From Promethearchaeota archaeon (GTDB taxonomy: Archaea > Asgardarchaeota > Hermodarchaeia > Hermodarchaeales > Hermodarchaeaceae), in the NCBI GenBank assembly GCA_048939625.1, contig JBHLPH010000017.1, forward strand, positions 1 to 43,310: a stretch of 43,310 bases of DNA, written 5' to 3'. Below the pieces are notes generated by a model. It was given only the letters and a program-made list of their open reading frames with translations. It ran no database searches and was not told where the DNA came from. This document shows positions 36 to 27,476 of this stretch, one piece after another. The stretch's first letter is position 1. Each line of letters opens with the position of its first letter. Made by a program: the position numbers and the translations under genes.

Positions 36-138
36 ATACCTTAGGAGACTTATGTGCTGTAAGAAGTCTGGGTGTATAAAATCCGGGAACACGTGTGTTG
101 TACCGATCTGGTGGGGTGGACGACCACTTTTTCTTTTT
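36..138 (+). repeat. Intergenic dispersed repeat, copy 1 (well conserved)
   Basis: CCTTAGGAGACT...AGTCTGGGTGTATAAAATCCGGGAACACGTGTGTTGTACCGATCTGGTGGGGTGGACGACCACTTTTTC; aligns by eye with copies at 3472, 4138, 5791. Confidence 0.9.
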
Positions 139-310
139 GGTAGTTTGTTTGTCTTCCTGTTGATGAATGAGTTTGAGCAAGGCTTTGTTAGTGAAAAGCC
201 TAGAATTTGGTGAGATTAACTAGAGTGTTTAGACGGTTTTCATTAAGAAATATATAATCTGGTCATTAATAGTCAAGTGAATCCCATTTTGGGATGGAGG
301 AAGATGGAAA

Positions 311-3300
311 ATGGTTAGAAAAACTGTATTAGTTAGTGTTCTAGTTATTGCCATTGTTGGGATTTTGTTTCTTCCCACCATACGCCCTTCAGTGAACAAT
401 TCTTCATCAGCGATGATACCAGCGAAAAATAATGATCACCTGTTGACATCCAGTGCAACCGATGTAGGTGTCGAGTCTTCTAAGAGTATTAGCGCTGCTA
501 TGGGATCTTCTGATGATGAAGGGGCTTACCCTGTAGCGCCTTCAGAGACTGAAACGGTTAATGCCTCGATTACAACGGAAAAATTCACTTATTTATGTAA
601 TGAAACTGTTACGGTAAACGGTCAGCATTTTACTCCTTTGACGGCAATAACGGTAACGATTGAACGTCCCTGTTGTTGTGGACAACATGAGAATCACATC
701 GATGTTTTTGAAAGTGTAGTCGCAGATGCACTTGGTGCTTTTACGTTGGATTATCACCAAACAGCGGCAACCGGAATCTATAACCTCACCGCAGGTGATG
801 GGGTTAACTCAGTAGAAAATTCGTTTATTGTCAGCTCGTGTCTCATTTGGGCCGATGAATTTGTCTACCAGCCCAATGAGACAGCGAATATCTATGGAGC
901 GGGGTTCGTATCTAATGCACAAGTTAATGTTACCATTCAAGCACCCGATAATTCCACACAAACATGGTCGGTACTCACCGATACTGCGGGTAATTTTACC
1001 ACAACATATCTAGTTGAACAAGGCGCTGGTATGTATTTAGTCTTCGCTGAGGACGGAACCAATGTTGCCATCACTTGGTTTGCGGATCCATTCATCATAG
1101 TTACCCCTCTCTGGGGAGAGGTTGGGACTATGGTAGCGGTTCATGGGTTTGGCTTCTGGGGTCAAGGGTACGTTTATTTCGGTGGAGTGAAAGTGGCACC
1201 TATCGTTGGATTAGGGCTCCTAGGTGAGTTTCACGTATTGTTTCCAGTACCAGAGTGGGCTGTCCCTGGAAACTTCTACTTCATATCGGCGGTCACCAGT
1301 ATCTGGATGAATCCGGAATTTTGCTTTGATGTGTATTGCCCAGTGTGCGAATGGATTCCTCTATGTGTTTTAGGAATCTGTATTCCAGTACTATATTGTT
1401 GGAATTATGTTTGCGGTGAAGTCTGCATACCCCTTCCACCAATTTTCTTAGAATTTTCAAGCATCATTCCATTACCGTTTATTGTTGAACCAAGTGCTCC
1501 TGCAGACATCATTCCACCCATCACCGAACGCATAATTGATGGCTTTCTGGGATACAACGAATGGTATACATCTGAAGTAACTCTTAGGTTGCACGCAAAT
1601 GATGATTACTCGGGCGTAGATCGAACCTACTATAGAATCGGAGAAACAGGGCCTTACTCCCAGTACACTACTCCTCTTGAGTTCACTACAGATGGAGATT
1701 ATACAGTGTATTACTATTCAATTGACAAGGAAGGCAATGCTGAATCACCAAAGCAGATAATCATCAAAGTTGATAGAACCGCACCAACAACTGAGTTTAC
1801 TCCAACGGGTACGATTGGCTTGAATTCCTGGTTCAATTCAACGGTTATAGCATCATTTGAAGGAAATGATCCGACACCTGGCTCAGGATTGAAGACGATT
1901 TATTATCGGATAAATGATCCAGAAGGACCGTGGATTCCCTATGCAACTGATTTTGACCTAACGGATGGAACTTACACAATCGAATGGTATTCCGATGACC
2001 TTGCTGGTAATACGGAATCTCCCCATGCAGTTACAATTCGGATAGACAGTGAAGCCCCCAATACAGCACCTACCCTTTATGGCAATCAAGGTGAAGCCGA
2101 TTGGTATGTCTCTGATGTATCTTTGGAACTTACTGCAACCGATCCAGTTCCAGGCTCCGGCTTCTGGTATACTGAATTTAGTTATGATGCTACCACATGG
2201 TTTAGTTATACTGAACCAGTAGCCATATCGAATGAAGGAAGCACCACCGTATACTACCGAAGCATTGACCAAGCGGGTAATATTGAAGAGGTAAAATCAA
2301 CGACGATTCAAATCGACAAAACGGCTCCAACAACGGAAATTACCTTCAACACCTACTACCTTGAAGACTTCAACAATATCTTCGTGACCAGTGACACCAT
2401 TTTCACTTTATCAGCATCAGATGACGTTCCTGGAGTAGTAGATGTTTCTGGTGTAAAACACACCTATTATCGAATTAATGATGGAGAGTTCCAAATCTAT
2501 CTAGACCCCTTCTCCCTGAAAGGAGTAGATGGAGTTTACACAATCGAATTCTTTAGCATTGATCATGCTGGAAATGAGGAACTACCATATTTGACTCAAA
2601 CCGTTACCCTTGTTAGTCTCTCAGCAAATTCGTACCTTACGGATAGTAGTTTCAATCCAATCTCCTTCTTTGATTTCATTTTAACAAAGAGCAAAGAAGG
2701 TGGCTATAAACTCGTAGCGACCAATCCAGGGCAATTCTATTACAATATTGAAATCACAAACAATTGGCCAATTTCCCTTGATACATTAGTTGTAGAAGCG
2801 ATTCTTCCTGCAGAATTTGTACTCAAAGGCGCAATGCCGATCCATGTATACCTTGATGGAAACGACATAACAGAACAGTGCACAATTACTGGCACGACTG
2901 TAACTGTTATGAATGTTCCAGTTGGCAGTGAAGTCTACATTGCAATTCACATGGATTTTGGTCTCAAAGGATGCACCTTCGACACACTAGAGGACTTGAT
3001 GGTTGAAACCTACAAGTTTGACACCTACGTGGTAGGTTCTACGGGAATAGTTCCGTCCCAAGGTGATGGCCTTTATGGAACCTACAGAACTTCCAATATC
3101 CTATCAGCACATCAGAAGAAGACCACAGCAATAGCAGGTTATATCACAGATGTTGATGGAAATCCATTGGCTAATCTGCTCGTTGAACTCTTTGACTCAA
3201 ACAACAACTTGATCGGTACTACTCTTACAAATGATGACGGATTCTTCTACTTCATAGACATATCAAGTGGCGATTATGAAATCCACGTAAATGGATTCCT

Positions 3301-3364
3301 AGAAACTGTGAGTGCAAAAAACGGAGAATTAACCCTGATATTCATAACTATAGAAAATCTCTAA
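311..3364 (+). CDS. Large secreted/cell-surface protein: Ig-like and IPT/TIG-like domains, four OmpL47-type beta-barrel repeats, C-terminal carboxypeptidase-regulatory/CnaB-like domain
   Basis: 1017-aa ORF; GGAGG RBS; N-terminal hydrophobic signal; repeats of D.TAP.T...G..G...WY.S.V...L.A.D...SG...T.Y...Y.S.D.AGN.E; C-terminal IAGYITDVDGNPL...T.TNDDGFFYF. Confidence 0.85.
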   Translation: MVRKTVLVSVLVIAIVGILFLPTIRPSVNNSSSAMIPAKNNDHLLTSSATDVGVESSKSISAAMGSSDDEGAYPVAPSETETVNASITTEKFTYLCNETVTVNGQHFTPLTAITVTIERPCCCGQHENHIDVFESVVADALGAFTLDYHQTAATGIYNLTAGDGVNSVENSFIVSSCLIWADEFVYQPNETANIYGAGFVSNAQVNVTIQAPDNSTQTWSVLTDTAGNFTTTYLVEQGAGMYLVFAEDGTNVAITWFADPFIIVTPLWGEVGTMVAVHGFGFWGQGYVYFGGVKVAPIVGLGLLGEFHVLFPVPEWAVPGNFYFISAVTSIWMNPEFCFDVYCPVCEWIPLCVLGICIPVLYCWNYVCGEVCIPLPPIFLEFSSIIPLPFIVEPSAPADIIPPITERIIDGFLGYNEWYTSEVTLRLHANDDYSGVDRTYYRIGETGPYSQYTTPLEFTTDGDYTVYYYSIDKEGNAESPKQIIIKVDRTAPTTEFTPTGTIGLNSWFNSTVIASFEGNDPTPGSGLKTIYYRINDPEGPWIPYATDFDLTDGTYTIEWYSDDLAGNTESPHAVTIRIDSEAPNTAPTLYGNQGEADWYVSDVSLELTATDPVPGSGFWYTEFSYDATTWFSYTEPVAISNEGSTTVYYRSIDQAGNIEEVKSTTIQIDKTAPTTEITFNTYYLEDFNNIFVTSDTIFTLSASDDVPGVVDVSGVKHTYYRINDGEFQIYLDPFSLKGVDGVYTIEFFSIDHAGNEELPYLTQTVTLVSLSANSYLTDSSFNPISFFDFILTKSKEGGYKLVATNPGQFYYNIEITNNWPISLDTLVVEAILPAEFVLKGAMPIHVYLDGNDITEQCTITGTTVTVMNVPVGSEVYIAIHMDFGLKGCTFDTLEDLMVETYKFDTYVVGSTGIVPSQGDGLYGTYRTSNILSAHQKKTTAIAGYITDVDGNPLANLLVELFDSNNNLIGTTLTNDDGFFYFIDISSGDYEIHVNGFLETVSAKNGELTLIFITIENL

Positions 3365-3412: not shown

Positions 3413-3471
3413 AGTTAGCTTAGATTTTTTGCGCCTGAATATGATTTTATACGGAACTTTAAGTTGTACTG

Positions 3472-3540
3472 AGTCTGGGTGTATAAACCGGAAACACGGG
3501 TGTTGCACCAGGCTGAGGTGGACGACCACTTTTTTCTATT
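3472..3540 (+). repeat. Intergenic dispersed repeat, copy 2
   Basis: AGTCTGGGTGTATAAACCGGAAACACGGGTGTTGCACCAGGCTGAGGTGGACGACCACTTTTTTC; 38/39 nt identical to copy 4 over the core. Confidence 0.9.
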
Positions 3541-3663: not shown

Positions 3664-4011
3664 ATGGCGTTGATTGATACGGCGAAGATTTTAGCGAAGG
3701 CGGGTTCCATTGTGTGTATCGTTTTAGGGATTCTTGCTGGGGTGCTGAATGGTCTTGTTATGTATGAAGAGTTTGGTGGGCGGCATGGGATTGCTGTTGA
3801 GACTATTCTATGGTTTTCTTTAGCCATTGTCGCGGTGGTCTTTGGTTTCATCATTCTGTTCTATTGTGTGCCGAGGATAGACCAGGATCGGCAAGCGGCA
3901 GCCCTTTATTTCATTATTTTCGGTGTGGTTGCGGCGATTGGTTCGTATCTTGTTGGCGGTGTGTTGATATTCGTCGCAGGGATCTTGGTGGCTGTGGAGC
4001 AGGCGAGCTAA
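3664..4011 (+). CDS. Small 4-TM membrane protein (DUF4064-like); paralog of 20995..21354
   Basis: ATG at 3664 after GGAG; hydrophobic Gly-rich helices; D.AK.L...G.I..IV.G and I.FGV.A.IG shared with 20995. Confidence 0.75.
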   Translation: MALIDTAKILAKAGSIVCIVLGILAGVLNGLVMYEEFGGRHGIAVETILWFSLAIVAVVFGFIILFYCVPRIDQDRQAAALYFIIFGVVAAIGSYLVGGVLIFVAGILVAVEQAS

Positions 4012-4137
4012 TGAGCTAAGCCCAACAAACCGATGAGACTAGCTAGCATAGGTCGCATTAGACGAGGGCTAAATTTCGAATTGAAATCATTTTCCCTGAG
4101 GTGCCTTTCTTGGGCACTTCGGAGTGGGCAATGGGAT

Positions 4138-4204
4138 CGGGTGTCGATACCGGAACCACGGGTGTTGTACCGATCCGTTGCGGTGGACGACCACTTTTTT
4201 CTAT
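4138..4204 (+). repeat. Intergenic dispersed repeat, copy 3
   Basis: CGGGTGTCGATACCGGAACCACGGGTGTTGTACCGATCCGTTGCGGTGGACGACCACTTTTTTC. Confidence 0.9.
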
Positions 4205-4248: not shown

Positions 4249-4473
4249 ATGGGTTTGGTTTCGAAAATGTCGGATCGGTTAGTTGTTTCGGTGAATGATG
4301 TGCTGAATGGAAAGGTAGACGTTCAGAATCTGAGGGCGCGGTATGTGTTACTTAAAGCGGGTTGGTCGGGGTTTGAAACGATTGTTAAAGCAATCAATTA
4401 TATGGCGAAGTTTGGGTGGCGTGCTGTTGGGTTTTCGTGGGGGGGGTATTGTTTGCTTGAAAAAGTTGAGTGA
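4249..4473 (+). CDS. Small hypothetical protein, DUF4177-like motif
   Basis: 74-aa ORF; INYMAKFGWRAV...YCLLEK resembles the LN.LG..GWELV...Y...KR pattern. Confidence 0.55.
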   Translation: MGLVSKMSDRLVVSVNDVLNGKVDVQNLRARYVLLKAGWSGFETIVKAINYMAKFGWRAVGFSWGGYCLLEKVE

Positions 4474-4633
4474 AGACTCGATCATTGAAACATGGGGGAG
4501 ATTTACCCAGTTGTTCAGTCATTCAATGTGTTGGCGGAAGCTTCGATGCGTTGATACGTATCGTAGGAATTGAAAGCAAGGTATAACGCTAGGTAGCGGT
4601 TCCATCGACTGGTTCATTTATATTATCGGGGGG

Positions 4634-5761
4634 GTGATAGCGGTGTTTATGAGCTGTGATTGGACCGGGATACGGTGTTTTCGATTTGGGATTGTTGTGG
4701 TGTTAGTTGTGGGGTTGCTGGTGCCTATCGTAGGATATTCAGTAAACGAGACCGGGACAGGACAGGTCGTGTCGGGAATCCTACAGGGTGCGGATTGGCA
4801 GGTGGGGGATTCGTGTACGATTTTCACCGTAACAATTGGGGATACGGTGTTCTATGGGAATAATGAGGACTATTTGTTAGAAGGGACTTATCTATGGCTG
4901 GTCCCAGTGCAAGAAATTACTACGCCGTATGATACGTTCACGATCCATGGGTTCGTGGGGGTGGGCTTTAATTACCATAACCATTCTGGCGATGGAGTGC
5001 AGGGTGCGATGAATGATCAGGGGCTCTGTGTTGATGCCAACGGGCTTCCCCCGTTATCGATGAATCCGCATCCGGAACGGGATGCGTTTTACCCGAATAT
5101 CCTTCAAGCGGTGATGTTTGAATGCGGGACGGTGAGTGAGGTTATCACCTGGTTCCAAACTCATAATTGTGGCATGGTGTGGGCGTGTCAGCTTCACTTC
5201 GCGGATGCCACCGGGGATGCGGTTGTGGTCAGTGTGTACGATGGGGAGTTCAACTTCACTCGAATCAACGGTGCGCCCTTCCTGGTGTCCACGAATTTCA
5301 ACCTCGCGAACCACTCCAATGGTGGCTACCCGTGTACTCGGTATAACACTGCGACGCTCATGCTTTCGTCCATTACCTCCGAGGAGGACCTCACTGTGGA
5401 AGCGTGTCGTGATGTGCTCGACGCGGTTCATAGTGAAGGCACTTACGGTACCAAGTATAGCAACATCTTCGATCCGGTGAATCGGCAGGTGTACCTCTAC
5501 CAGAATCACAACTTTGATGAACTGGTCACACTCGACCTTGATTTGGAACTCGCGCAAGTTCATCCAGGCGGCATTGGCGTCATTCAGGAAGACCTTGGTT
5601 ATTACCGAGAAGTCCGTCTCTCAAGCCTCTTCACATCCCCGATTATCCCACCGATCTTGGTCCTCGGAATAGGCGGAGCGACTATCGTTAGTGGCGTAGT
5701 TATTGCTCTTGTCGTCTGGCGCATTAGAAAACCACCATCGCAAGGGCCAGATCCTAAGTAA
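4634..5761 (+). CDS. Membrane-anchored Ntn-hydrolase (peptidase C45/AAT/choloylglycine hydrolase-like)
   Basis: Signal peptide; S-CTIF...FYGNNED nucleophile motif; GAMNDQGL; FADATGDAVV; STNF; C-terminal TM helix with basic tail. Confidence 0.85.
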   Translation: MIAVFMSCDWTGIRCFRFGIVVVLVVGLLVPIVGYSVNETGTGQVVSGILQGADWQVGDSCTIFTVTIGDTVFYGNNEDYLLEGTYLWLVPVQEITTPYDTFTIHGFVGVGFNYHNHSGDGVQGAMNDQGLCVDANGLPPLSMNPHPERDAFYPNILQAVMFECGTVSEVITWFQTHNCGMVWACQLHFADATGDAVVVSVYDGEFNFTRINGAPFLVSTNFNLANHSNGGYPCTRYNTATLMLSSITSEEDLTVEACRDVLDAVHSEGTYGTKYSNIFDPVNRQVYLYQNHNFDELVTLDLDLELAQVHPGGIGVIQEDLGYYREVRLSSLFTSPIIPPILVLGIGGATIVSGVVIALVVWRIRKPPSQGPDPK

Positions 5762-5790
5762 TCATGTTCTTTTGGGGTATCCCCGTGGGG

Positions 5791-5882
5791 ATGCCTTAGG
5801 AGACTATACAGTACGGGGGCGGGTGTATGTTGATGGAAACACAGGTGTTGCACCAGGCTGAGGTGGACGACCATTTTCTATT
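5791..5882 (+). repeat. Intergenic dispersed repeat, copy 4
   Basis: CCTTAGGAGACT (shared with copy 1)...GGGTGTATGTTGATGGAAACACAGGTGTTGCACCAGGCTGAGGTGGACGACCATTTTC. Confidence 0.9.
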
Positions 5883-6118
5883 GTGAGTGTTTAATTGCAG
5901 ATTTGAATATTCTGTAATTATTGTGCGCGGCTTTGATTTCGGGGAGAGAGTTTAAATTCAGACCATATCTTGTGTACTGATATTGGTCAACTCTAGGGGA
6001 TTGCGGTCTTGTTTCGAACTAAACCGGGATTTGCGTTGCCGTGTCTAGGCTGTCATTCTTTACACAAATCTATGGTTGACCGAGTATTAGAGAGAAGAAT
6101 GAACATTTTAGGAATGAA

Positions 6119-7285
6119 ATGGTTATGAATCAGAAGATTCTTACAATTGCGTTAGTTGTGTTGACGGTAGTTGCTGTTGGTGGTGTTGCTGGTGCGGGTA
6201 TTATCTATGTGGGTAATCTGACGTTAGAAGCGCAGTTCCAAAGCCTAGCGAGTGATTATGCAACGTTACTTGATGAGTATAATGCTCTGGTGGCAAATTA
6301 TTCAATTCTCACTGGTGAATATTCAGCGTTAGATGACGCATATAATACCCTATATTCGGATTATGCAAGTTTACTTTCGGCATATAATGATCTGTCTGTG
6401 ATTTACGACAATCTAAATACACGCTATTATGAGTTATGTGCATGGATTCGGGGACAGACGTTACCGAATCAAGTAGCAGTCTGGATGGAAGCCGTTAGGC
6501 GTGTTTATCTACCGGATTACCTTTCTGGCTACTCTGATAAGGAATATTGGAAACAATTCGCAAAGTTTACTCGAGATGTGGTTCTTCATGCCTCTGGACA
6601 GGTGGATTTGTTTAGTGATGTATCTTCAGCGATTTCTGGTGCCCTAAGCTATGGAACAAACACGATGTATCTGGCAGATAGAGCAATGGCGATATTGTCA
6701 ATGAATGACGGAGCCTATTTTGCCAAATTTCCTGAATACTGGGGGTGGGGAATTGGGAGTGAGGTCTGGGGAATTGAAACAATTGTTGCAGATTGTTATG
6801 GCAATATTGACTACGAATATGACGATGACATAACTACGAGTCAGGAGTATTTTGCCTGGGATTATATCAAACACCCAGTTGAAACAGCATTTCGAACATA
6901 TGGAGATTGTGAAGACCAAGCAATCCTTTGCGCCTCGTATCTCGAAAACTGCTATTTTGTGAATGCAACCGGGAATTTTCCATATGAAACAGCAGTTGCT
7001 ATCATCCATGACCCCTCCCATCCCACCTATGGTGCATTGTATCATGGCGTATTGCTAGTGCATATTGAAGATACAACTGACTTCTGGAGTCGCCACCCAA
7101 CCACATCATTATGGCGATTTGGTTCATCAGACCCATACTATCCAGACTATACCTGGTGTTGGTGTGATCCGACGTGGGATACTCCATTTGGTGTTGAACC
7201 TGCATGGCTTCCTCCTTATGGAGGATCAATATCCTTCAGCGTTGTTTCAATTGCATTCTGTGAACAAGGTGGAACTGTCTTGTAA
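6119..7285 (+). CDS. Membrane-anchored coiled-coil protein with transglutaminase-like cysteine protease domain
   Basis: N-terminal TM; Y..L heptad repeats; GDCEDQAIL..S, HGVL, DPTW (Cys-His-Asp triad). Confidence 0.85.
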   Translation: MVMNQKILTIALVVLTVVAVGGVAGAGIIYVGNLTLEAQFQSLASDYATLLDEYNALVANYSILTGEYSALDDAYNTLYSDYASLLSAYNDLSVIYDNLNTRYYELCAWIRGQTLPNQVAVWMEAVRRVYLPDYLSGYSDKEYWKQFAKFTRDVVLHASGQVDLFSDVSSAISGALSYGTNTMYLADRAMAILSMNDGAYFAKFPEYWGWGIGSEVWGIETIVADCYGNIDYEYDDDITTSQEYFAWDYIKHPVETAFRTYGDCEDQAILCASYLENCYFVNATGNFPYETAVAIIHDPSHPTYGALYHGVLLVHIEDTTDFWSRHPTTSLWRFGSSDPYYPDYTWCWCDPTWDTPFGVEPAWLPPYGGSISFSVVSIAFCEQGGTVL

Positions 7286-7371: not shown

Positions 7372-7423
7372 GAAATATGTATGTGGGTTCCTTGGCGGGA
7401 GCGGACGACCACTTTTTCTTTTT
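7372..7423 (+). repeat. Intergenic dispersed repeat, copy 5 (degenerate 5' half)
   Basis: Exact GGACGACCACTTTTTCTTTTT at 7403-7423; lies between convergent genes. Confidence 0.8.
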
Positions 7424-7426: not shown

Positions 7427-8074
7427 TCAATATCTTTGGTGGACATAGATTTTCACGTGCCAAAGCATGGTGTTTTGCTGGAGGTGTTGTTTGAAGCCGA
7501 GGCTGTGCAGCAGAGTATCAATGGCGTCGACTGGATGGATGAAGGTGCGAAAGGAGTGTCGACGCATCCAGAGACTGAAATTTTCCAATCCGATGGAAAG
7601 TCTGCTTAGCAAATTGGTCTGTGGAATGACGAGGCCATAGTGGGTGCGTGCCAGTGAGGCGGATTGCTTAACGAGGGTTTGCCAATCGTCGTAGCAGCAG
7701 ATGACTTTGTCGAGGGTGACAATATCGGTGGGAGAGATGGTGGTGACCAAGTCGATGAAGTCACCGTGATGATGGCTTATGCGATCTGCATGGCCTTGTC
7801 GTTCGCCTTCTTCTTGTGTAGCTGAAATATAGGCCATAGAGGCTTCGACATTTATGCTGTGCTGTAAACCTGATTTAAGTAATTCGTGTTGAATCACACC
7901 GATGCCGCCACCAATATCAAGTAAAGTTTTCCCTTTCACGCCTAGGGTTTTTAATGCGTTAACCAGAAGGCGCGTGGTGGGTGTCATGCCTTTCTCTCGA
8001 TATTGTTTGAGTTCGGTCTCCGCGACGGTCCGATCGAAGGTGGTTTCAAGGACTTGCCGTTGACAACAGCCCAT
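7427..8074 (-). CDS. Class I SAM-dependent methyltransferase (BchM-like family)
   Basis: LLDIGGGIG motif I; GDF; DIVTLDKVICCY. Confidence 0.85.
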   Translation of the reverse strand: MGCCQRQVLETTFDRTVAETELKQYREKGMTPTTRLLVNALKTLGVKGKTLLDIGGGIGVIQHELLKSGLQHSINVEASMAYISATQEEGERQGHADRISHHHGDFIDLVTTISPTDIVTLDKVICCYDDWQTLVKQSASLARTHYGLVIPQTNLLSRLSIGLENFSLWMRRHSFRTFIHPVDAIDTLLHSLGFKQHLQQNTMLWHVKIYVHQRY

Positions 8075-8154
8075 GGTGTGTGCACCCCAAAACGCCTATT
8101 GTGTATATACTTCTAATAGTAGTAATTTAAGTATAAGTTTGGTCGCAAGCGGTT

Positions 8155-8889
8155 GTGGAGGCTGTTTTCTTGCAATTTGAAGTGTTTGTGCACAGCTTAG
8201 GGCTACTGGGTTTAATTCCAGTGGTCCTGATGATTGTCCTCGCCTTGTGGGGCGTCTTGACCAGCTCTGGTAGACAAAGGACGCTCTTACTGTTGGGATT
8301 TCTCATCTTTCTCAGCGTTTTAATTGGCCAAGTGGTTGTTCAGTTGACTCGACTGGGAATTCTTCCCTATAGTGCTTGGTCGCTGTGGGGTCAGTATGTC
8401 GACTTGGGAATGATTGGGTTCTATATGTTACTAATTGTGATCTATGCGATTATCCTAGCTTTTCCTGCCTTTTTCAATGAACGCAAATGGATTATCATAT
8501 TTCCTCTCATCGGATTTATCGTCTATGAGGCGCTCATGTACAGTGCCAACGCGATTTCTTTCATTCTGTATGGGAATGCATGGTTTGCGACAGGGCTAAT
8601 TTTAGCCATTCTCTTCATGATCGTGATTCCACTGTATGCGACATTTCAGTATACTCGACAGGATCGAATCCGCGGCTCGCCTAATGTGCTCTGGATTTGG
8701 CTCTTTATGCTTGGGACTTTAATCTGGGCTATCGCAATCTCCCTGCTCTTCGGCGGGTGGCTGTTTATGCTGCCAGGCTACGACTCGTTCTTTAGCTCTC
8801 TAGGGTTGACGATGGTTAGCGCTCTAACCATTGGCTGGTATCTAATTCTGATTGGCTTTTTCTTCCAACTAAGAGTCAAGAAATCATGA
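8155..8889 (+). CDS. Hypothetical 7-TM integral membrane protein
   Basis: 244-aa ORF with about 7 hydrophobic segments. Confidence 0.75.
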   Translation: MEAVFLQFEVFVHSLGLLGLIPVVLMIVLALWGVLTSSGRQRTLLLLGFLIFLSVLIGQVVVQLTRLGILPYSAWSLWGQYVDLGMIGFYMLLIVIYAIILAFPAFFNERKWIIIFPLIGFIVYEALMYSANAISFILYGNAWFATGLILAILFMIVIPLYATFQYTRQDRIRGSPNVLWIWLFMLGTLIWAIAISLLFGGWLFMLPGYDSFFSSLGLTMVSALTIGWYLILIGFFFQLRVKKS

Positions 8890-8978: not shown

Positions 8979-9055
8979 CGTAGAATCTGAATTCGTTGCA
9001 AAGATGAGGAATCTAAGTTGCATTACCGGCGACAAAGAGTACTGAATGAATGTTC

Positions 9056-9110
9056 TGAGAACACTGATGTGTTAGACAAGGTGTTGGGACAGACGGCCAC
9101 TTTTTCTTTG
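9056..9110 (+). repeat. Intergenic dispersed repeat, copy 6 (degenerate)
   Basis: GAGAACACTGATGTGTTAGACAAGGTGTTGGGACAGACGGCCACTTTTTCTTT. Confidence 0.7.
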
Positions 9111-15678: not shown

Positions 15679-15684
15679 TTCTAT

Positions 15685-16953: not shown

Positions 16954-16962
16954 TTTCCATCC

Positions 16963-19775: not shown

Positions 19776-19909
19776 ATCGAAGTTACCTCCGTTAGGAGAT
19801 GGTTTGATCTCTGACAGAAGATGCAAAACCATATCCAAAAGCTTCCTATGTCTCTTGTTTATATTTAAATCGTTCTTAATCCGCATTCCTTCTTGTTGGA
19901 GTGGGTTAT

Positions 19910-19956
19910 CCTGAAACACCGGTTTTAGCCCAGTGTTTAGGTAGACGACCACTTTG
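19910..19956 (+). repeat. Intergenic dispersed repeat, copy 11 (degenerate)
   Basis: CCTGAAACACCGGTTTTAGCCCAGTGTTTAGGTAGACGACCACTTT; lies between divergent genes. Confidence 0.75.
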
Positions 19957-19997
19957 TGTGGGTAAGGTTAATACCTGATGTTTTCGTAGCAGTTGAT

Positions 19998-20195
19998 ATG
20001 GCTCTACTTTCGGCGTTTATGATTTTAGCTTATGTTGTTGTAATCATTATCCTTCTATGGTTTCTGGGATTGGGTCGGTCACCTACGAATGTTCAGCTTC
20101 GAAGTCTTCGGGTACAAGGAGCGGCGATTGTGGTGATTGTGATTATCGGAATTGTGCTGGCGACCTTTCTTGCCCTTCAACCGAGTATTCCGTAA
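19998..20195 (+). CDS. Small 2-TM membrane protein
   Basis: ATG at 19998; two hydrophobic helices. Confidence 0.55.
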   Translation: MALLSAFMILAYVVVIIILLWFLGLGRSPTNVQLRSLRVQGAAIVVIVIIGIVLATFLALQPSIP

Positions 20196-20273
20196 AATCG
20201 TAGTCAACACAGCTATTAGTAGATTAAGTGAGTACAGAGTGGAACTCGATTAATCACAGATTGAGGTGTTAAT

Positions 20274-20903
20274 TTGCCACCGTTTTTGAAAGGGAAGAGA
20301 GTGAAACCGGACCAGGTCCCGTATTTGGTTGTGTTCTTTGCCAGAGAGTATGTGTCAAAAATAAAAGCTTTTTTAGAGAGGGATTATCCAACGCGTCAAG
20401 AAGGTGTAAAGGGGTTCACGACCATGATGAGGGTAATTTATCCTCAGGTCTATCAGTTGCAACAGCAGTTACCAGAATCTCTGGTAGAAGAGATGATTTT
20501 AGGGCTTCCTGCATACCTCAGTCTCCATGAATGGGACAAAGAGTCCAACAAATGGAAAAATGAGAAGAAAAAAGCGCTAAACGCCTTTCTAGAAGGAAAA
20601 GACACTCCTGCAGATGAATATGGTAATCCTGACTTTCTTAGTGGTATGTTTGTCTCAATTATGATGTTATTGAATTCAACATATAAGGGACTAATCTCGC
20701 CTAGGGGTCTTTCCAGCAACTTCGACGACACAGCATACACCGACTCCTATTTTCACTCAGTCTATCATCAGTTTGAATATGAGATTTTTACCAAAGGTCT
20801 CCTCAAAACCGTTAGCGATCTTAGAGGAATCATGCCGTTAATCTATGAGATTGAGCGAAAACTCGCACTGTATCCACCCTCGGGGTTACTGGAAGAGATG
20901 TAG
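20274..20903 (+). CDS. Hypothetical soluble protein
   Basis: 209-aa ORF; GAGGTG RBS before TTG; no motif recognised. Confidence 0.75.
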   Translation: MPPFLKGKRVKPDQVPYLVVFFAREYVSKIKAFLERDYPTRQEGVKGFTTMMRVIYPQVYQLQQQLPESLVEEMILGLPAYLSLHEWDKESNKWKNEKKKALNAFLEGKDTPADEYGNPDFLSGMFVSIMMLLNSTYKGLISPRGLSSNFDDTAYTDSYFHSVYHQFEYEIFTKGLLKTVSDLRGIMPLIYEIERKLALYPPSGLLEEM

Positions 20904-20994
20904 GAGAGTTAGAAAAAAGTACTAGCTGAAATGCTTTTATGAAGTGTACCTTGAATTGACCTCGTCGCTTTATGCATATTAAAGGTGGAATCGG

Positions 20995-21354
20995 TTGTCA
21001 CATGTTGATAGTGCAAAGACCCTAACACGAGTTGGTGCAATCCTCCTCATTGTTGGCGGATGCATACAAGTTGGCGAAAACAGCCTTTGGTTTGTACTTA
21101 ACCTTCTCGCCGGATACATTTTCAGAGGAAGGGTGGTGAACATTGGGTTAGGCATAGTCACCATCGTCTTTGGGTTTCTAATCCTCTTAGTATTCCATAG
21201 AATGATCGATACGAATAGGCCCAACGCTCCAATTTTCATCCTGATCTTCGGCGTCATCGCGGGGATTGGTGGCTGGTGGTTTGGTTGGATCGGGTCAATT
21301 CTCTGCCTTGTTGCAACCATTCTGTTATTCATTGAAGGAAAGGAAGCAGTGTAA
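20995..21354 (+). CDS. Small 4-TM membrane protein; paralog of 3664..4011
   Basis: AGGTGG RBS; sequence similarity to 3664..4011. Confidence 0.75.
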   Translation: MSHVDSAKTLTRVGAILLIVGGCIQVGENSLWFVLNLLAGYIFRGRVVNIGLGIVTIVFGFLILLVFHRMIDTNRPNAPIFILIFGVIAGIGGWWFGWIGSILCLVATILLFIEGKEAV

Positions 21355-21375
21355 GCTCCTCTTTCCCTTTGTCTT

Positions 21376-21404
21376 ATCTTGGTGGAGTGGACAACCATGT
21401 TTTT
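21376..21404 (+). repeat. Intergenic dispersed repeat, copy 12 (3' half)
   Basis: ATCTTGGTGGAGTGGACAACCATGTTTTT versus copy 1 ATCTGGTGGGGTGGACGACCACTTTTT. Confidence 0.6.
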
Positions 21405-21503
21405 GGTTAGGCTTTGCTCCATACTTCTTGGAATGATAATGTTCTAACGTGATGACACAGGTATCTCTATTCATGTGAAAATTTAGAGGGAGGTGATAGT
21501 GAG

Positions 21504-21949: not shown

Positions 21950-22438
21950 ATGAAACACGAAACGATAGAGCCGGCATCCTTATCACGCGCCTTGAAATCC
22001 CAACACGCAATATCCAACATCAAAACAGAGGGCAACCTCCTGTCATTTTTTACAAATCCCGAAACGTATGTGGAGCTTGCCTCTAATCTCTACGAACGTG
22101 GCTTTTCGCGCTGTCTCACTGTAGCAGCTGTCGATTGGATTGAGCAAAACGAGTTCGAGGCGTATTATATCGTTCACCATCTTGAAGCGAACCTATACGT
22201 GAAAGTGACCACACGTATTCCTCGAAATAAACCGAGAATCCAGAGCTTGGCTGCAATCTGGCAGTCAGCAGCGATGCATGAACGCGAAATGTGGGAGCTT
22301 TTCGGAATCAACTATGTTGGAAATCCGATGTTGAAACCGCTCTTCCTCGAAGACTGGAAAGGGAAACCACCCTTGCGAAAAGATTTCAATTGGCGTGAGT
22401 ACGTCAACAAGGAATACTATCAGGTGAGAGGGAAATAG
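21950..22438 (+). CDS. nuoC: NuoC/MbsK-like subunit (complex I 30-kDa family)
   Basis: AVDW...FEAYY; HEREMWELFGINYVGNP...PPLRKDF. Confidence 0.9.
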   Translation: MKHETIEPASLSRALKSQHAISNIKTEGNLLSFFTNPETYVELASNLYERGFSRCLTVAAVDWIEQNEFEAYYIVHHLEANLYVKVTTRIPRNKPRIQSLAAIWQSAAMHEREMWELFGINYVGNPMLKPLFLEDWKGKPPLRKDFNWREYVNKEYYQVRGK

Positions 22439-22441
22439 CCA

Positions 22442-24454
22442 ATGTCACGACTTCTGAAAGCCGTAAAAAGTGTACTAGGACTCGCAATCTCAAAACCCAT
22501 GACCTTCTCGTTTCCTCCCGACATGCCACTGACTGACTTATACCGGGGTCGGCAACTCTACAAGCCTGATTTGTGTAAAGGCTGTAAAATCTGCTCGATT
22601 GTGTGTCCTAATAATGCCATTGAGATGGTCGACCGTGAAAAGAGTGGAGAAAACAAAACCGGACTTCAACCGCAAATCGATTTCCGGAAATGCTGTTTCT
22701 GTGGGCTTTGTGTGGACAATTGCCCCACCGGCGCCCTTACCTTCACGAATTTTCCCATCCTGCTGACCATGAAACCAGAAACCCTCAACTATACACCCGA
22801 AATGCTTGCTGTCGCCCCTGTCCTCGAACATCCAGAGCCCCCGAAGATCCAAAATACCGTCGCCTGGGCCCGCTCACGGAGTATTTGGATCGTCAATTAC
22901 ATGACCGGGTGTTGTTTCATTGAAGCGGTACCATGGGTGGCGAGCTCCTTCGATATGGAGCGGTTCGGACTCTTAGCTGTAGGCTCCCCCCGACATGCCG
23001 ATGCGCTGATTGTTGGTGGATATGTCACCCCCAAGACCCTCAAACGCATTATCCGCATCTATTCCATGATGCCCCAACCCAAATGGGTCATCGCTCTAGG
23101 CAATTGCCCCATGACTGGCGGCACTTACTGGGACAGCTACAATACCATCAAAGACATCAGCAAATACATCCCCGTCGACATCTGGATCGCTGGTTGTCCC
23201 CCGCGACCTGAGCCCATTGGTGTTGCTGTCGTGCATGCCATTCAAGCCATTCAAGGTGGATACACGGGTAAGGAAGAAAAAATAAACACCGACGCGGGGC
23301 AAATGGAGGTGGCCCCCTACCCCCTCAAAGGGGCTGATGCCAGCAAAGCCCAGTTTGATGTCGTGTTCGGATCCCAACATCCTGCCTCCGGAAACTTCAA
23401 TATGGACCTCCAACTGGATGGCGAAATCGTCGTTGATGCAACTCCATACCCCGGCTATTTGCATCGTGGCTTCGAGAAACTCATGGAATATCGTACCTGG
23501 CTCCAAAACATCATGCTGGTCCCCCGTATTTGTGTCCTTGACGGCGCCTCCTATGAGCTCGCCTATACTGGTGTAACCGAGAAACTGGCGGGCATCAAGG
23601 TTCCGATTCGGGGTCAGTACTTACGGGTCATTCAAGCCGAACTCTCACGCATCCAAAGCCATCAAATGAACCTAGGGTTTGGTGGAGCCGCCTCAGGCTT
23701 TGATACCATCGAACGCTTAATCTGGGGTGACCGTGATCAAGTCCTTCTCCTTCTCGAAGAACTCACCGGCGCACGAATCTACCACATCTTCAACACCATC
23801 GGAGGAGTCCGCCGCGACCTCCAACCTGATTTCCAAGAAAAAGCTGAACACCTCATTAGTTATCTCCGAAAACGCCTTCACATCTACGATGATCTCTTAT
23901 TCCATAACAAAACTTTCATCGATCGGACTCAAAATCTTGCACCCCTCTCCCAGACCACCGCGATCGAAAACGATGTTACCGGTCCCAATCTCCGGGCAAC
24001 CGGCGTTGAGTTCGATGTTCGAACCGCCACCCCTTATGAAGCCTATAAGGACATTGGGGTAAAGGTTATTACCGGAACACCTGGTGACGCCTACACTCGA
24101 TTTCTCTGCCGGCGACAAGAAATTGAAGAAAGCCTCAATATCATCGAACGTGCATTAGACAAGTTACCCAGCGGCCCTGTCTGTGAAACCCAAACCCCAG
24201 AAGGCAAAAAGATTACTTGGCGACTCAAAATCCCACCCGGCGACGCCTTTTATTGCACAGAAGGGGGTCGTGGAGAACTGTGTTTCCACGCCGTCAGCAA
24301 TGGTGAAAACACCCCGTACCGCGTGAAGGTACGAGGCCCCACGTTCGGAACCATCCTTGTCATGTTTCCCAAATTACTCCAAGGCGTGAAAATCGCGGAT
24401 GTTCCAGTCATCTACTGGAGCCTCGACCAATGCCCTGCCGATCACGACCGATAA
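22442..24454 (+). CDS. NuoI-NuoB-NuoD triple fusion, MBS/Mbx (sulfane-sulfur reductase)-type catalytic module
   Basis: Two CxxCxxCxxxCP; GCCFIE...GNC...GCPPRPE; GYLHRGFEK; RICVLDG; C-terminal DQCPADHDR (two Cys kept, as in MbsL). Confidence 0.9.
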   Translation: MSRLLKAVKSVLGLAISKPMTFSFPPDMPLTDLYRGRQLYKPDLCKGCKICSIVCPNNAIEMVDREKSGENKTGLQPQIDFRKCCFCGLCVDNCPTGALTFTNFPILLTMKPETLNYTPEMLAVAPVLEHPEPPKIQNTVAWARSRSIWIVNYMTGCCFIEAVPWVASSFDMERFGLLAVGSPRHADALIVGGYVTPKTLKRIIRIYSMMPQPKWVIALGNCPMTGGTYWDSYNTIKDISKYIPVDIWIAGCPPRPEPIGVAVVHAIQAIQGGYTGKEEKINTDAGQMEVAPYPLKGADASKAQFDVVFGSQHPASGNFNMDLQLDGEIVVDATPYPGYLHRGFEKLMEYRTWLQNIMLVPRICVLDGASYELAYTGVTEKLAGIKVPIRGQYLRVIQAELSRIQSHQMNLGFGGAASGFDTIERLIWGDRDQVLLLLEELTGARIYHIFNTIGGVRRDLQPDFQEKAEHLISYLRKRLHIYDDLLFHNKTFIDRTQNLAPLSQTTAIENDVTGPNLRATGVEFDVRTATPYEAYKDIGVKVITGTPGDAYTRFLCRRQEIEESLNIIERALDKLPSGPVCETQTPEGKKITWRLKIPPGDAFYCTEGGRGELCFHAVSNGENTPYRVKVRGPTFGTILVMFPKLLQGVKIADVPVIYWSLDQCPADHDR

Positions 24455-24587
24455 TCGGAATAAGCGAACAAGTATTCGGTGCAGTAGTTTTTGGCAGGAC
24501 CATTGAACGATTCCGAGAATCTTCAAGAATAAATCTAGGCCTAAATGGTCTTTAACGCCACAAAAATCAGACCATTCTAAACCTAAC

Positions 24588-25700
24588 TCAGGAATTCATT
24601 CGTTTGATGAGTCTGTGCCAATCTTTGGTATCATGTAGAATATCGAACTCAGAACATTCTTGCGTATATTCAAGATTTTGCCATCCCTCAGTGATTGCCT
24701 GGTTGAGGAGGCGGAGGGCTTTCTGTTTCTTCCGTAGGGCTGCGGCAGCCTGCGCAGCTTGATGATAGTACCAATAAGAGACAGACCCTTTGGCGAAGGC
24801 TTTCTCATAGCTGTCAAGTGCTAGGGCGAAGAGACCTTGAAGAAAGCGACGAAGGCCGGTTTCAGCGAGGTGGGTAGCTTCATCGATCATGCAGTAGTGC
24901 CAGGTGTAATCTCGGGTTTTGATGAACCCGACGTTTTCAGCGACGCCGATGGATCCATAGTTTTCGATGTTGGTGTGCCAGCCGACTTGTGAGTAACCGT
25001 GGGTGAGGGCGTAGTCGACGGTGGCGGCGGCGGTGAGGGTGGCGAGTCCACGGTGGCGGTATTCGGGTTTGGTACGTATGCCGATTTCACATCTGTTTCT
25101 GCTGACACAATCTGTGAGGCTCCAGGAGACGACCTCATGTTCGTGTACGGTACAAAAACCAAAGCCCTGTTTCCAAAAGGCGTCGATTGAACCCCAATTG
25201 ATACGCATCCAATTGAGAATGTGGTCTGGGATTACTATGTTTTTTTTGCCAAGGAAGGTTGGTTCTAGTTGATGGATGGAGAATCCAGTTGGTATCTTTT
25301 TTTGCCAGTCGATTTTTACTTCAGTGCAGGTGTAGTATAGTCGGGGAAGTTGCAGTGGTGGTCGAGTGGGGAAAAGGGTATCAAATTTGGTTTGCCAGTC
25401 CTCGGGGTGGATGCATAGAACCAGGTCGTCATCGTTTTCTCGAACGGTATCTCCTGCAAAAATGGTGGTGAGGATGTAATCACGTAGACCTTGGTTAAAC
25501 ATACCGTTTTGGGGGTCGCCAGCGAGATAGTAGCCTTCTACTGAGCAGATGAAGGCACTGGTGGGTGCTTTGGGGTTGTCAGCAATTATCCGTCCTGGAC
25601 TTGATCCATCAATAACGGCTGCTATTGTGAGCTGGTAGTCTAATGCGTTGAATAGGGATCGAACCTTTGGGTATTCTTTCTTTTTAAGCTCAACAATCAT
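24588..25700 (-). CDS. GNAT acetyltransferase with C-terminal TPR-like helices
   Basis: EIGIRTKPEYRHRGLAT acetyl-CoA motif; N.GS..VAE.VGF; YYHQA.....A...L.QA...GW. Confidence 0.85.
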   Translation of the reverse strand: MIVELKKKEYPKVRSLFNALDYQLTIAAVIDGSSPGRIIADNPKAPTSAFICSVEGYYLAGDPQNGMFNQGLRDYILTTIFAGDTVRENDDDLVLCIHPEDWQTKFDTLFPTRPPLQLPRLYYTCTEVKIDWQKKIPTGFSIHQLEPTFLGKKNIVIPDHILNWMRINWGSIDAFWKQGFGFCTVHEHEVVSWSLTDCVSRNRCEIGIRTKPEYRHRGLATLTAAATVDYALTHGYSQVGWHTNIENYGSIGVAENVGFIKTRDYTWHYCMIDEATHLAETGLRRFLQGLFALALDSYEKAFAKGSVSYWYYHQAAQAAAALRKKQKALRLLNQAITEGWQNLEYTQECSEFDILHDTKDWHRLIKRMNS

Positions 25701-25868
25701 TACTGAACATTCACGGTCTAATTCATCTTAAAGCATACGTAAAACCCATTCCGGATAATATCCTTCCTGTATATTGTGAGGGAGAACTCTGTGATGGCAA
25801 GTTTCAGTGTTTATTATAACATGCCGACAAAGGATCCAGTTGGTGATTAAAAAGTGTCTAGTAATTTT

Positions 25869-25918
25869 GGGAGGCACCCGAGTGTCGTATTCGGCTGGAA
25901 TCGATGAGATTTGTTCTT
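25869..25918 (+). repeat. Possible highly degenerate copy of the dispersed repeat
   Basis: GGAGGCACCCGAGTGTCGTATTCGGCTGGAATCGATGAGATTTGTTCT; about 60% match to copy 2 by eye. Confidence 0.35.
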
Positions 25919-26012
25919 ATAATATAATGATGTCAGTGAAGATTTTTGATGGAATTCCTGCTAGCTTTTAAAAAGCAAACCTTTTTGCATTGAACCAGCA
26001 TATTGGAAGACC

Positions 26013-27407
26013 ATGACGCCTCAAGAAGGAGCCGCAGAGCGGGGTCCAGCTGGCCCAATCGTTTTGCTAGCTATAGGAATTATTTTGTTGTACGGTTTTG
26101 GATTCTATAATTTGTTCTTCCTTGTTTCGCCATTTTTGCCGATAATTATCGATTTTATTAACTTGGCGCTGCCTTGGTTGGCTGGGTTTTGGTGGGCAGG
26201 ATTGGCGTTCATTGTTATTCTCGTAGTGTTGGGTTTAGGGCTCGCCTACATTATTTTGATATTGATGAAGCGAGCGGCAGCGGGAACATTGCGTGTACTC
26301 TGGATTCTGCAAGCCGTGTTAATGATTGCGGTTGGTGTGTTGATGTTCCTTTTTTTGGGACCATTTGGGTTTTTTGGCCTGATTTTTCCTTTCATAGGGG
26401 TCATTCAATTTTGGGTGTGGTTCCGGCGCCGTAGTAAAATCGAGCGGGCCGGTAAATTGGTGGAATTCACGGCGCAACTGCTGCTGGAAGAAAAAGAGAT
26501 GTTCATTGTTCCATTGGTCACCGCAGTGTTCAGCCTGTTGACCGGCATTCTCATGATGGCAACGTACGGGGCTATGTATACGTGGTTACCTTTGGTTGGG
26601 ATTCCCCCAGAGTCGTGGATATTTTTCCTTCTGAGTATTTTGGTGCAAATTCCGTTTCTGTTCGTGTACTTTTCGGTCTTTTACATCTTTGATGGTATTA
26701 ACATCTCCATTGCTCATACGTGGTATCGCGAAAAGGATCCCGTTTTGCGTGGTGGTGTCGGAGAAGTGCGACAAGTCTTAGGCACCATCATTCAGTTTGC
26801 CGCCCTCCGCACCGCAGTATCGGTGGGTCAGAGTGCCATTCGACAAGGCGGCGCGCGCCAAGGTGGAATCTGGGCCTTAATCGGCAGTATTTTTGCTCGT
26901 ATTATCGGAGCCATATTTCGGTTCATCAACTATTTCACCTTGCCTGCCATCATCATTGAAAAACGGCGCCTCATTGATTCCATTAAACGCTCGGTGCATG
27001 TCACTTGGCATTACTTAGTGGACGTCTACATCGCCGAGACCGGCGTGTCTACAGTGTATAGTTTCTTTGGAGGCTTACTTTCCCTCGGATTTCTGGTTGT
27101 TGGATTTCTCTTCGGTTATGTATTCGCCATTTTCCTGCTGAGCGATCTTTTCTTCGCCCTGATTGCGGGCATCATCTTTGCTATCTTCTTCTCCATTTTT
27201 GCCTCTGTTCCTAGCTATTTCATTTTCCGACCTTTGAATACGGCATATCGAACCTTCATGTTTTCCTATGCACTCGACGAAGAAAGCGGCTTTAGTCTGC
27301 CAAGCCGATTACCAAAGGCGTACCGAGATACCATTGAGGCAGCCCAAGCTGAATGGGAGGCATCAGGAAAAGATCGATTCATGGAAGAACCCCCAAGTGA
27401 ATGGTAG
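26013..27407 (+). CDS. Polytopic membrane protein, choline-transporter-like (CTL/SLC44/Pns1; DUF6159-like C-terminal half)
   Basis: About 10 TM; KIERAGKLV...A......F.VP; LGTI...A; FINYFTLPAIIIE......SIKRS. Confidence 0.7.
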   Translation: MTPQEGAAERGPAGPIVLLAIGIILLYGFGFYNLFFLVSPFLPIIIDFINLALPWLAGFWWAGLAFIVILVVLGLGLAYIILILMKRAAAGTLRVLWILQAVLMIAVGVLMFLFLGPFGFFGLIFPFIGVIQFWVWFRRRSKIERAGKLVEFTAQLLLEEKEMFIVPLVTAVFSLLTGILMMATYGAMYTWLPLVGIPPESWIFFLLSILVQIPFLFVYFSVFYIFDGINISIAHTWYREKDPVLRGGVGEVRQVLGTIIQFAALRTAVSVGQSAIRQGGARQGGIWALIGSIFARIIGAIFRFINYFTLPAIIIEKRRLIDSIKRSVHVTWHYLVDVYIAETGVSTVYSFFGGLLSLGFLVVGFLFGYVFAIFLLSDLFFALIAGIIFAIFFSIFASVPSYFIFRPLNTAYRTFMFSYALDEESGFSLPSRLPKAYRDTIEAAQAEWEASGKDRFMEEPPSEW

Positions 27408-27431
27408 TCCCTAACCAATGATATCCGACTT

Positions 27432-27476
27432 CTGGGAAAATGAAAGGTACATCAGACAGAGTGGCTGACCACGTTT
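27432..27476 (+). repeat. Degenerate copy of the dispersed repeat
   Basis: CTGGGAAAATGAAAGGTACATCAGACAGAGTGGCTGACCACGTTT; 30/46 match to copy 2 by manual alignment; lies between convergent genes. Confidence 0.45.

Follow-up and report, generated by a model that had tools for sequence, protein, structure and literature searches.

A probable cassette array of displaced 16S rRNA trailers in Hermodarchaeaceae

What kind of element is a repeat that recurs between the genes of one archaeal contig, always in one orientation, and fades from one end of the contig towards the other? The contig is JBHLPH010000017.1 of a Promethearchaeota archaeon (assembly GCA_048939625.1, family Hermodarchaeaceae); its whole 43,310 bp, here called the window, belong to a metagenome-assembled genome (MAG) of 83 contigs and 2.3 Mb. 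A reading made from the sequence alone had likened these repeats to integrons and to clustered regularly interspaced short palindromic repeat (CRISPR) arrays, with new units added at the left end. Our data show that the repeat is the last 10–25 nt of 16S rRNA together with its ∼130-nt 3' trailer. We consider it probable, at about 70%, that the window belongs to a cassette array of displaced 16S trailers lying behind the single 16S gene, in which modules are swapped by recombination in the trailer while the displaced copies decay.

The full-length conserved unit, counting the upstream extension of the strong copies, is ∼145 nt long and consists of CCTCCTAAGAAATCATTT, a hairpin (H0), box A (GGAAACACGGGTGTTG), a variable loop, box B (GGGGTGGACGACCAC) and a T-run. 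Compensatory changes are found at seven of the nine pairs of H0, and several copies open with CTGCGGCTGGATCACCTCCT, the universal 3' end of 16S rRNA. In four relatives the first and best copy directly follows a co-oriented 16S gene (Rfam SSU_rRNA_archaea): in G016:C21, where a complete 16S gene is followed by four copies, in G005:C71, whose 16S gene is 3.6 kb long and intron-bearing, in G007:C48 and in G014:C26 (G stands for a relative's genome, C for its contig). On every contig anchored in this way the copy adjoining the 16S gene has the top score. In G005 and G016 the 5' leader of 16S is rich in C and A and pairs with the G/U-rich trailer over the full length of the repeat core; both leaders hold CGTCCACC, the exact complement of box B, and the leader–trailer duplexes reach z-scores of –4.4 and –5.4 against shuffled trailers. 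Processing stems of pre-16S RNA form and are cut in archaea, and the genuine copy is thus the 3' strand of such a stem. The strand-specific G-U pairs of the repeat are explained by this pairing of trailer and leader. A reading of the 5' extension as a conserved C-terminal coding module was discarded, since length differences of 1–2 nt between copies break any frame. The 16S inserts of G005:C71 (L097:619-4212, – strand) carry three LAGLIDADG-type open reading frames (ORFs) of 194, 211 and 157 aa; the last 16S exon there seems to be ∼20 nt long (CTGCGGCTGGATCACCTCCT), and the same junction occurs in G014 and G007.

How does the window connect to this gene? This MAG contains no 16S gene, and GGATCACCTCCT likewise occurs nowhere in it. 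The link comes from G014:C26. Downstream of its 16S gene, this contig has at least six copies and leads on to homologues of w3664, w26013, w7427, w8155 and w27488 (window genes are named by their start position). As both the 16S gene and five window modules are present on it, the window is the same locus, and we infer that its own array starts at its unassembled 16S gene. The contig begins at the first repeat copy, REP1; the preceding part of the array is missing from the bin, and in public run X1 the array goes on leftwards, a public contig adding 950 nt and a paralogue of 4262–4361 to the left of position 1.

Copies were sought with two covariance models: R1, made from the four best window copies, and R2, made from 56 copies of relatives only, which is independent of the window and so avoids circularity. 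A scan with R2 (filters off, E<0.05) found 11 copies in the window, from 59 to 21408, all of them on the + strand. REP1 (35..141, core 59–136; 92.1 bits) shows homology with relatives' copies over 35–141; it starts inside H0, of which the 3' arm GATACCTT alone is left, and ends in a T-run. REP2 (3466..3538; 78.3 bits) is followed directly by sequence homologous to other species, which begins at 3536–3550 in the leader of w3664. REP3 (4083..4203, core 4128–4203; 80.3 bits) has a 5' extension holding the hairpin GAGGTGCC..GGCACTTC and is matched over 4083–4202 in five array contigs, and REP4 (5752..5883, core 5810–5883; 68.2 bits), matched over 5752–5902, has the full 5' extension, starting at the stop codon of w4634 (CCTAAGTAA). 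REP5 (7372..7421; 24.5 bits) is a half copy in which box B (GCGGACGACCAC) and the T-run survive, and REP6 (9032..9109) and REP7 (9705..9779) score 39.1 and 26.8 bits. The 3' half of REP8 (11595–11646; 15.5 bits) is lost, and what is left is fused to a – strand remnant of a w27488-like C-terminus (11632–11712, 19 residues), identical at 10/19 positions to the last residues of w27488 (BLASTP, E 2e-5). The degenerate REP9 (13596..13666; 15.8 bits) is the positional counterpart of a 31-bit copy beside the oligopeptide transporter (Opp) operon in G001. REP10 (19894..19961; 23.1 bits) contains a breakpoint relative to G003 at 19952, and REP11 (21342..21408; 22.9 bits) closes the series.

Further right, candidate relics on the + strand lie before w26013 (25849..25919; R2 9.1 bits, E 1.4) and at the stop codon of the – strand gene w27488 (27435..27481; R1 6 bits, E 5.6); neither is significant alone. 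The sequence-only reading had counted copies at 25–27 kb, and their scores are at noise level, yet they sit exactly where relatives carry good ones: a 39.3-bit copy before the w26013 homologue in G014 and a 19.3-bit copy before the w27488 homologue in G007. No copies were found beyond 28 kb of the window. From copy to start codon the distance is 46 to 542 nt. The four best copies are mosaics, the type of extension pairing REP1 with REP4 and the type of loop pairing REP1 with REP3 and REP2 with REP4. Elsewhere in this MAG the repeat does not occur, the copies being confined to the window contig. No Rfam family corresponds to it at gathering or permissive thresholds, an exact 19-mer scan of viral contigs gave no match, and the matches outside Hermodarchaeota in the genome collections, to bacteria and one Thermococci MAG, were single chance ones.

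Among relatives, model R1 found same-strand arrays in 12 of 14 congeners and in one of four sister-genus genomes, and the repeat in none of 42 genomes from other families of the phylum. The relatives' copies are 0.5–3 kb apart and often at contig ends; on any one contig, that of the window included, all share a strand. Ten window modules recur in these arrays in the same orientation to the repeat, usually with the repeat at the same short distance, and their order is changed. While the window reads w3664, w7427, w11799, Opp, w20274, w27488, contig G012:C116 has w11799, w20274, w7427, w3664, and in G007:C31 w27488 comes directly before w11799, in the intact order REP-w27488-REP-w11799. Matches to congeners split the window into pieces of 0.4–6 kb on different contigs, whereas two control regions of 20 kb, taken from other contigs, stay collinear across 10–20 kb in the same five congeners. 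The permutation of modules is thus specific to the array region. Two strong copies (73–74 bits) around a single opposite-strand methyltransferase gene are found at G014:C19:1-1300 and on the metagenome contig JABAOF010008418.1 (L077/L098); in G014 this two-copy mini-array is a second locus, beside a leucine-rich repeat (LRR) gene and apart from that genome's 16S contig. An 'empty site' comparison for it was rejected: the LRR gene has a homologue in G000:C83, and there is no synteny on either side.

Where do the exchanges take place? Upstream flanks that are 96–97% identical in three species pairs (G001/G007, G005/G004 and G014/G007) stay identical into the repeat up to ..GGGTGTTG(T), after which the loop and everything downstream differ; three independent recent breakpoints lie within a few nucleotides of GTGTTG. 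On the other side, homology of shared downstream modules starts at box B or right after the T-run. In G003, the closest relative (∼85% nucleotide identity), homology to the window stops at ..GACCAC in box B of the copy at 19894 and restarts at 21425, 17 nt past the copy at 21342; between these points G003 has 4.5 kb of other DNA versus 1.5 kb in the window. Public runs hold two back-joints, 3505->104 with its crossover inside GTGTTG and 5806->53 (run X1) with its crossover inside the shared CCTTAGGAGACT; they fit excised circles, tandem duplications or alternative orders. These data locate exchange within the repeat, for the most part in the stretch from box A to box B, and are compatible both with a site-specific cut and with homologous recombination in identity tracts. 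Other homology boundaries in the public runs, at stop codons or box B, were dismissed as strain-level events and are probably due to other species in the samples.

The left-to-right decay described earlier is real. REP2 and REP4 do share 38/39 core nt, differing at one, and REP1 and REP4 do share the upstream sequence CCTTAGGAGACT (39–50 and 5794–5805). Plotted against coordinate, R2 scores fall from 92 to 16–23 bits (Spearman rho –0.88, p 3e-4), more as a step after ∼6 kb than as a smooth slope; copies 5–11 alone give rho –0.57 (p 0.18). The gradient is negative in six of the seven relatives' arrays that have at least five copies (mean rho –0.32), and significant in one alone. That left-hand genes should be strain-specific and right-hand ones shared holds mostly: w311, w4249, w4634, w6119, w9213 and w9841 each occur in 0–2 of 14 congeners, rare genes are concentrated in the first 10 kb, and genes at 11.8–28 kb and beyond 33.8 kb are mostly shared in the genus, although w3664 (9/14), w7427 and w8155 are widespread and lie on the left. 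The first 6 kb is also where structural variants cluster in the public runs.

Less remains of the mechanism that had been read into this polarity. A cassette-like polar array it is, but the integron and CRISPR analogy does not extend to how it works, as no linked integrase was found and the repeat does not look like an attC-type site. A CRISPR array was rejected as well, the spacing being 0.6–6.3 kb and the intervals genes. The array does have its head upstream of position 1, as had been predicted together with an active site and its enzyme, but relatives show the 16S gene and its trailer there and no enzyme gene. Growth solely at the left end likewise lacks support: G005 and G007, two species, have the same first cassette behind 16S (77% nucleotide identity), and modules are permuted, not nested. 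Selection on the 16S-proximal copy with neutral decay elsewhere explains the gradient at least as well.

We therefore picture the locus as follows. The array would hang directly behind the single 16S gene, in the same direction, with the window as its body. Modules of 0.4–6 kb, each with its own promoter, would enter, leave or swap by recombination inside the trailer, and each insertion would leave one extra trailer copy. The genuine copy, which pairs with the 16S leader, would alone be under selection; displaced copies have no leader partner and would decay, presumably neutrally. Copies beside recently moved modules would still be intact, and exchange among intact copies would be more frequent. 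As displaced copies decay and recently moved modules keep intact ones, a left-to-right gradient would result. The cutting and joining of DNA would be due to homologous recombination between copies or to a nuclease of homing-endonuclease or another type.

Several observations weigh against this picture. With the 16S gene absent from the assembly, the linkage of the window to it depends on orthology with G014 and others. The 5' ends of copies are scattered between a point 25 nt inside 16S and points well within the trailer, which is not what a clean att-type exchange would predict, and covariation outside H0 is weak. In G003:C54 the stop codon of a w11799-like gene is joined straight to the w3664 leader without a repeat. 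Strong copies exist away from any 16S gene (G014:C19). Both back-joints are of low depth, cross over where short stretches are shared, and may be chimeras. Finally, a PF00589 search of 15 genus genomes found no tyrosine recombinase next to an array, and there are no free-standing LAGLIDADG genes on the genus array contigs except within the 16S introns of G005.

Which enzyme could act here? The sole conserved tyrosine recombinase in the genus is an XerA-like gene of 315 aa, one per genome and on other contigs; a weak PF00589 match in G007:C33 is ∼8 kb from a weak copy. Three LAGLIDADG genes just upstream of the repeat in G005:C71 were not retained as candidates for an array-linked enzyme, since the intron-bearing 16S gene contains them; in this MAG, such domains are confined to long, intein-type frames. 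The first cassette behind 16S in G005, in G007 and on a metagenome contig is an ORF of 419 aa on the opposite strand with a PDL..ECK motif (L040:1603-2862 in G007:C48, – strand; also L065 and L097:1-468). Weak look-alikes make it a possible PD-(D/E)xK nuclease; it matches nothing in Pfam, NCBIfam or PDB, and its scores in Atlas are no better than chance. A 35-aa remnant of it lies beside the repeat in G014:C19, and the ORF is absent from this MAG.

Similar structures are found outside the family. We surveyed 17 further Asgard genomes in which sequence downstream of a 16S gene could be read, and local copies of the 16S end and trailer stand between downstream genes, in the same orientation, in G042 and G021 (one family) and in G060 and G052 (another). 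Weaker single copies were seen in G031 and G029, ten of the 17 genomes had none, and G055 gave weak, mixed-strand matches alone. These copies lie 3–17 kb downstream of unlinked 16S genes (L114, G042:C1:1930382-1950381; L119, G021:C23; L116, G060:C9; L117, G052:C113) with identities reaching 97% over 225 nt; among the cassettes are LRR, methyltransferase, peptidase and PIN genes, those of G060 including a methyltransferase, an S9 peptidase and a PIN toxin. In G042, a closed genome of 3.08 Mb, two genes without known function and a 1171-aa LRR gene lie between its own trailer and a copy of 134 nt that is 96% identical, and past that copy come a free-standing LAGLIDADG gene (L114:7116-7736) and a tRNA gene.

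G042 presumably belongs to the Ca. Heimdallarchaeum group, and its layout matches that of HeimM2, an insertion that Wu et al. 2022 (PMC8813620) place exactly at the junction of the only 16S gene with tRNA-Arg, HeimV2 using the same site. The likeness to our array is foreign DNA exactly behind the sole Asgard 16S gene, with an LRR and a LAGLIDADG-type gene nearby; the difference is that the paper describes one or two elements, whereas our array has at least 11 copies and includes so commonplace a module as the Opp operon. Domain scans of the window proteins found no homing-endonuclease-like gene, unlike in HeimM2. Insertion immediately downstream of the single 16S gene is seen in relatives and in G042, and would hold for the window too. 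Trailer repeats, arrays, decay and shuffling are not mentioned in the passages of Wu et al. 2022 (PMC8813620) that term searches brought up, and the words 'direct repeats' are absent from its main text.

Several other explanations of the array have to be weighed, and two of them concern how DNA would be exchanged. Plain homologous recombination, with trailer copies as passive homology patches for RadA-type exchange, circles excised and reinserted, DNA exchanged with relatives, intact copies homogenised and diverged ones fixing their modules, is a tentative candidate. It fits with crossovers in identity tracts (box A, the shared CCTTAGGAGACT, box B), with the mosaic nature of the four best copies, with a permuted rather than nested module order and with the failure to find a dedicated enzyme. 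However, it leaves unexplained how the 16S end was first duplicated and why several Asgard families show the same build, and at 16S alone, and three independent recent breakpoints within a few nucleotides of GTGTTG count against it. Capture driven by a nuclease whose gene lies within the array or next to it, such as a PD-(D/E)xK or homing-endonuclease-type enzyme that cuts the trailer so that repair from a donor with trailer homology copies modules in, as has been proposed for HeimM2, would be a specific mechanism within the displaced-trailer explanation, not an alternative identity for the repeat; we regard it as doubtful. Wu et al. 2022 (PMC8813620) put HeimM2, with its LRR and homing-endonuclease-like gene, exactly at the junction of sole 16S gene and tRNA, the 96%-identical G042 copy of 134 nt lies between an LRR gene and a free-standing LAGLIDADG gene, and the 419-aa ORF with its PDL..ECK motif comes first behind 16S in G005, G007 and the metagenome contig, with a remnant beside the G014:C19 repeat. 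Yet such a gene is found neither in the window nor in this MAG, the 419-aa ORF gains nothing from Pfam, NCBIfam, PDB or the chance-level Atlas scores, and direct repeats are not normally left by homing.

Tandem islands at the 3' ends of tRNA and tmRNA genes and staphylococcal cassette chromosome (SCC) arrays at rlmH are recognisable mobile elements that encode their own integrase or recombinase. Our array resembles them in having a displaced gene 3' end as direct repeat, serial addition in a single orientation, an intact site next to the gene and decay of distal sites, and in four relatives direct repeats derived from the RNA gene 3' end start at the intact gene; it differs in having no linked integrase, very small units and an rRNA processing-stem trailer as target. 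Integrase-driven tandem integration of this style, with an attP that mimics the RNA gene 3' end and integrase genes since lost, would account for direct repeats made of an RNA gene 3' end plus downstream DNA, and for their tandem, one-way, distally decaying arrangement. It appears unlikely nonetheless: no array contig has a PF00589 gene within reach of the array, domain scans of the window and the PF00589 search of the genus found no integrase gene or remnant within the elements, the modules, single genes or operons, include none for replication or virions, and no dif-like 11-6-11 site exceeds chance. On this last point, a Xer/dif-type (pdif-like) core was tried with the 11-6-11 inverted-repeat definition of PMC8371274 and rejected, as the best arms match at 7–8/11, as in 55% of random 130-nt windows. 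An origin as a miniature inverted-repeat transposable element (MITE) or as an IS200-IS605-derived palindrome-associated transposable element (PATE) or repetitive extragenic palindrome was also rejected, with the copies on one contig and one strand (transposase families were not searched). Might each copy be a working cis-element, a terminator, insulator or structured RNA, with gene shuffling incidental? The hairpin followed by a T-run, the strand-specific G-U pairs, the compensatory changes in H0 and the co-orientation of 9–10 of 13 downstream genes would suit it, but copies decay next to conserved operons, some abut stop codons of opposite-strand genes, spacing to start codons ranges over 46–542 nt, Rfam has no match, pairing with the 16S leader explains the sequence and a repeat-free junction exists, so we hold this to be quite unlikely. 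By outcome the closest likeness is to integrons, including archaeal attC clusters without an integrase (CALINs; PMC9668308): cassettes are swappable, mostly co-oriented and often of one gene, the repeat is folded, and content and order vary between close relatives with boundaries at the repeat. Here, in contrast, no IntI, attI or attC core is apparent, the repeat comes from a host RNA gene and decays, and the cassettes have their own promoters and include large operons. Same-strand repeats between mostly co-oriented small genes and a reported enrichment of integrons in Asgard archaea (PMC9668308) speak for a classical integron or CALIN, which is very improbable even so, since the repeat is a 16S trailer and no IntI was found; moreover, the Hermodarchaeum assembly with 13 copies has only one 2-attC contig listed by Ghaly et al. 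(PMC9668308), with different repeats. By eye, no RYYYAAC/GTTRRRY pair stands at the copy ends. A separate 1.6-kb contig, G013:C450:1-1634 (L104), carries a Macro-domain gene between two attC-like repeats that R2 does not match; the contig probably corresponds to the CALIN in the list of Ghaly et al. 2022, and may be mis-binned.

Between the copies the window holds rather ordinary genes. On the + strand w311 (311..3364) encodes a secreted protein of 1017 aa with Ig-like and CarboxypepD_reg domains (Pfam) and is nearly species-specific, with one partial DNA match among the 14 congeners, while the small membrane protein w3664 (3664..4011, +) is the most widely shared module, 86–91% identical at the amino acid level in arrays of five relatives and with a 37% identical paralogue at 20995–21354. 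Next come a genus-rare cassette (4249..5761, +) of w4249 (74 aa; one of 14 congeners) and w4634 (375 aa; none of 14), the latter with a weak acyltransferase-like Pfam match and a C-terminal membrane anchor, and w6119 (6119..7285, +; 388 aa, N-terminal membrane helix), present in two of 14 congeners, once on an array contig. The module at 7427..8889 joins an S-adenosylmethionine-dependent methyltransferase (w7427, –; Pfam) to w8155 (+); the w7427 stop codon abuts REP5, and the repeat is equally placed beside its homologue in G001, G007 and G012. A fusion of a methyltransferase, a CdhD-like corrinoid domain and a 2x[4Fe-4S] ferredoxin (w11799, 11799..13604, +; Pfam) has homologues preceded by the repeat in G007, G011, G012 and G003. 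The OppFDCBA-like oligopeptide ABC transporter operon of 6.2 kb (13685..19952, –; Pfam) is one block with 83–89% nucleotide identity in G001, G007 and G012, where its neighbours differ. A small ORF with two transmembrane helices (19956–20195) forms a + strand module with w20274 and w20995 (19956..21354), in whose place G003 has the 4.5 kb of other DNA; at the DNA level the small ORF is 80–82% conserved on four array contigs of other species (G003:C24, G006:C25, G012:C113, G013:C245). Then follow genes for NuoC-like and NuoI-B-D fusion proteins (+) and a GNAT acetyltransferase (–) at 21950..25700 (Pfam), matched on a G003 contig over 21425–25662. A Kelch protein is also among the genes between window copies (Pfam), and 9–10 of the 13 genes downstream of copies are co-oriented with the repeat. 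An unrelated second direct repeat of 93 nt (29396–29488 and 30590–30682, +, 75% identical) fronts two large ORFs that are unrelated to each other and absent from all congeners. In this region (29288–33647, +) lie three large ORFs of 403, 442 and 525 aa, the last a calcineurin-like phosphoesterase; none of the 14 congeners has a DNA match to them, despite their place to the right of the last detectable repeat relic.

What would all this mean for Asgard archaea? Insertion behind the Asgard 16S gene and tandem islands at RNA gene 3' ends are known already, and the array is a variant of these; our literature search found no description of cassette arrays behind 16S genes. The displaced-trailer identity explains why the repeat is conserved, keeps one orientation, is found at a single locus and decays with distance. 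It also suggests why such arrays and the 16S gene tend to end contigs or to drop out of Asgard MAGs, which bears on binning and on tying 16S surveys to genomes. More tentatively, the 16S locus may be a general integrase-free cassette-capture platform of Asgard archaea, in which the 3' strand of the processing stem serves as recombination site, cut by a PD-(D/E)xK or homing-endonuclease-type nuclease or exchanged by homology, and modules build up, are reshuffled and are fixed when displaced trailers decay. If true, this would be an analogue of the integron by function, independently evolved and present in at least three families (Hermodarchaeaceae and two others). The questions are raised of which enzyme acts on a sequence of the rRNA processing stem, and whether the T-run of the trailer insulates inserts behind the strong rRNA promoter. 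The flank of the single 16S gene would be a recurrent hot spot of gene gain and shuffling in the archaea closest to eukaryotes, with modules that include transporters, methyltransferases, secreted proteins and toxin-antitoxin genes.

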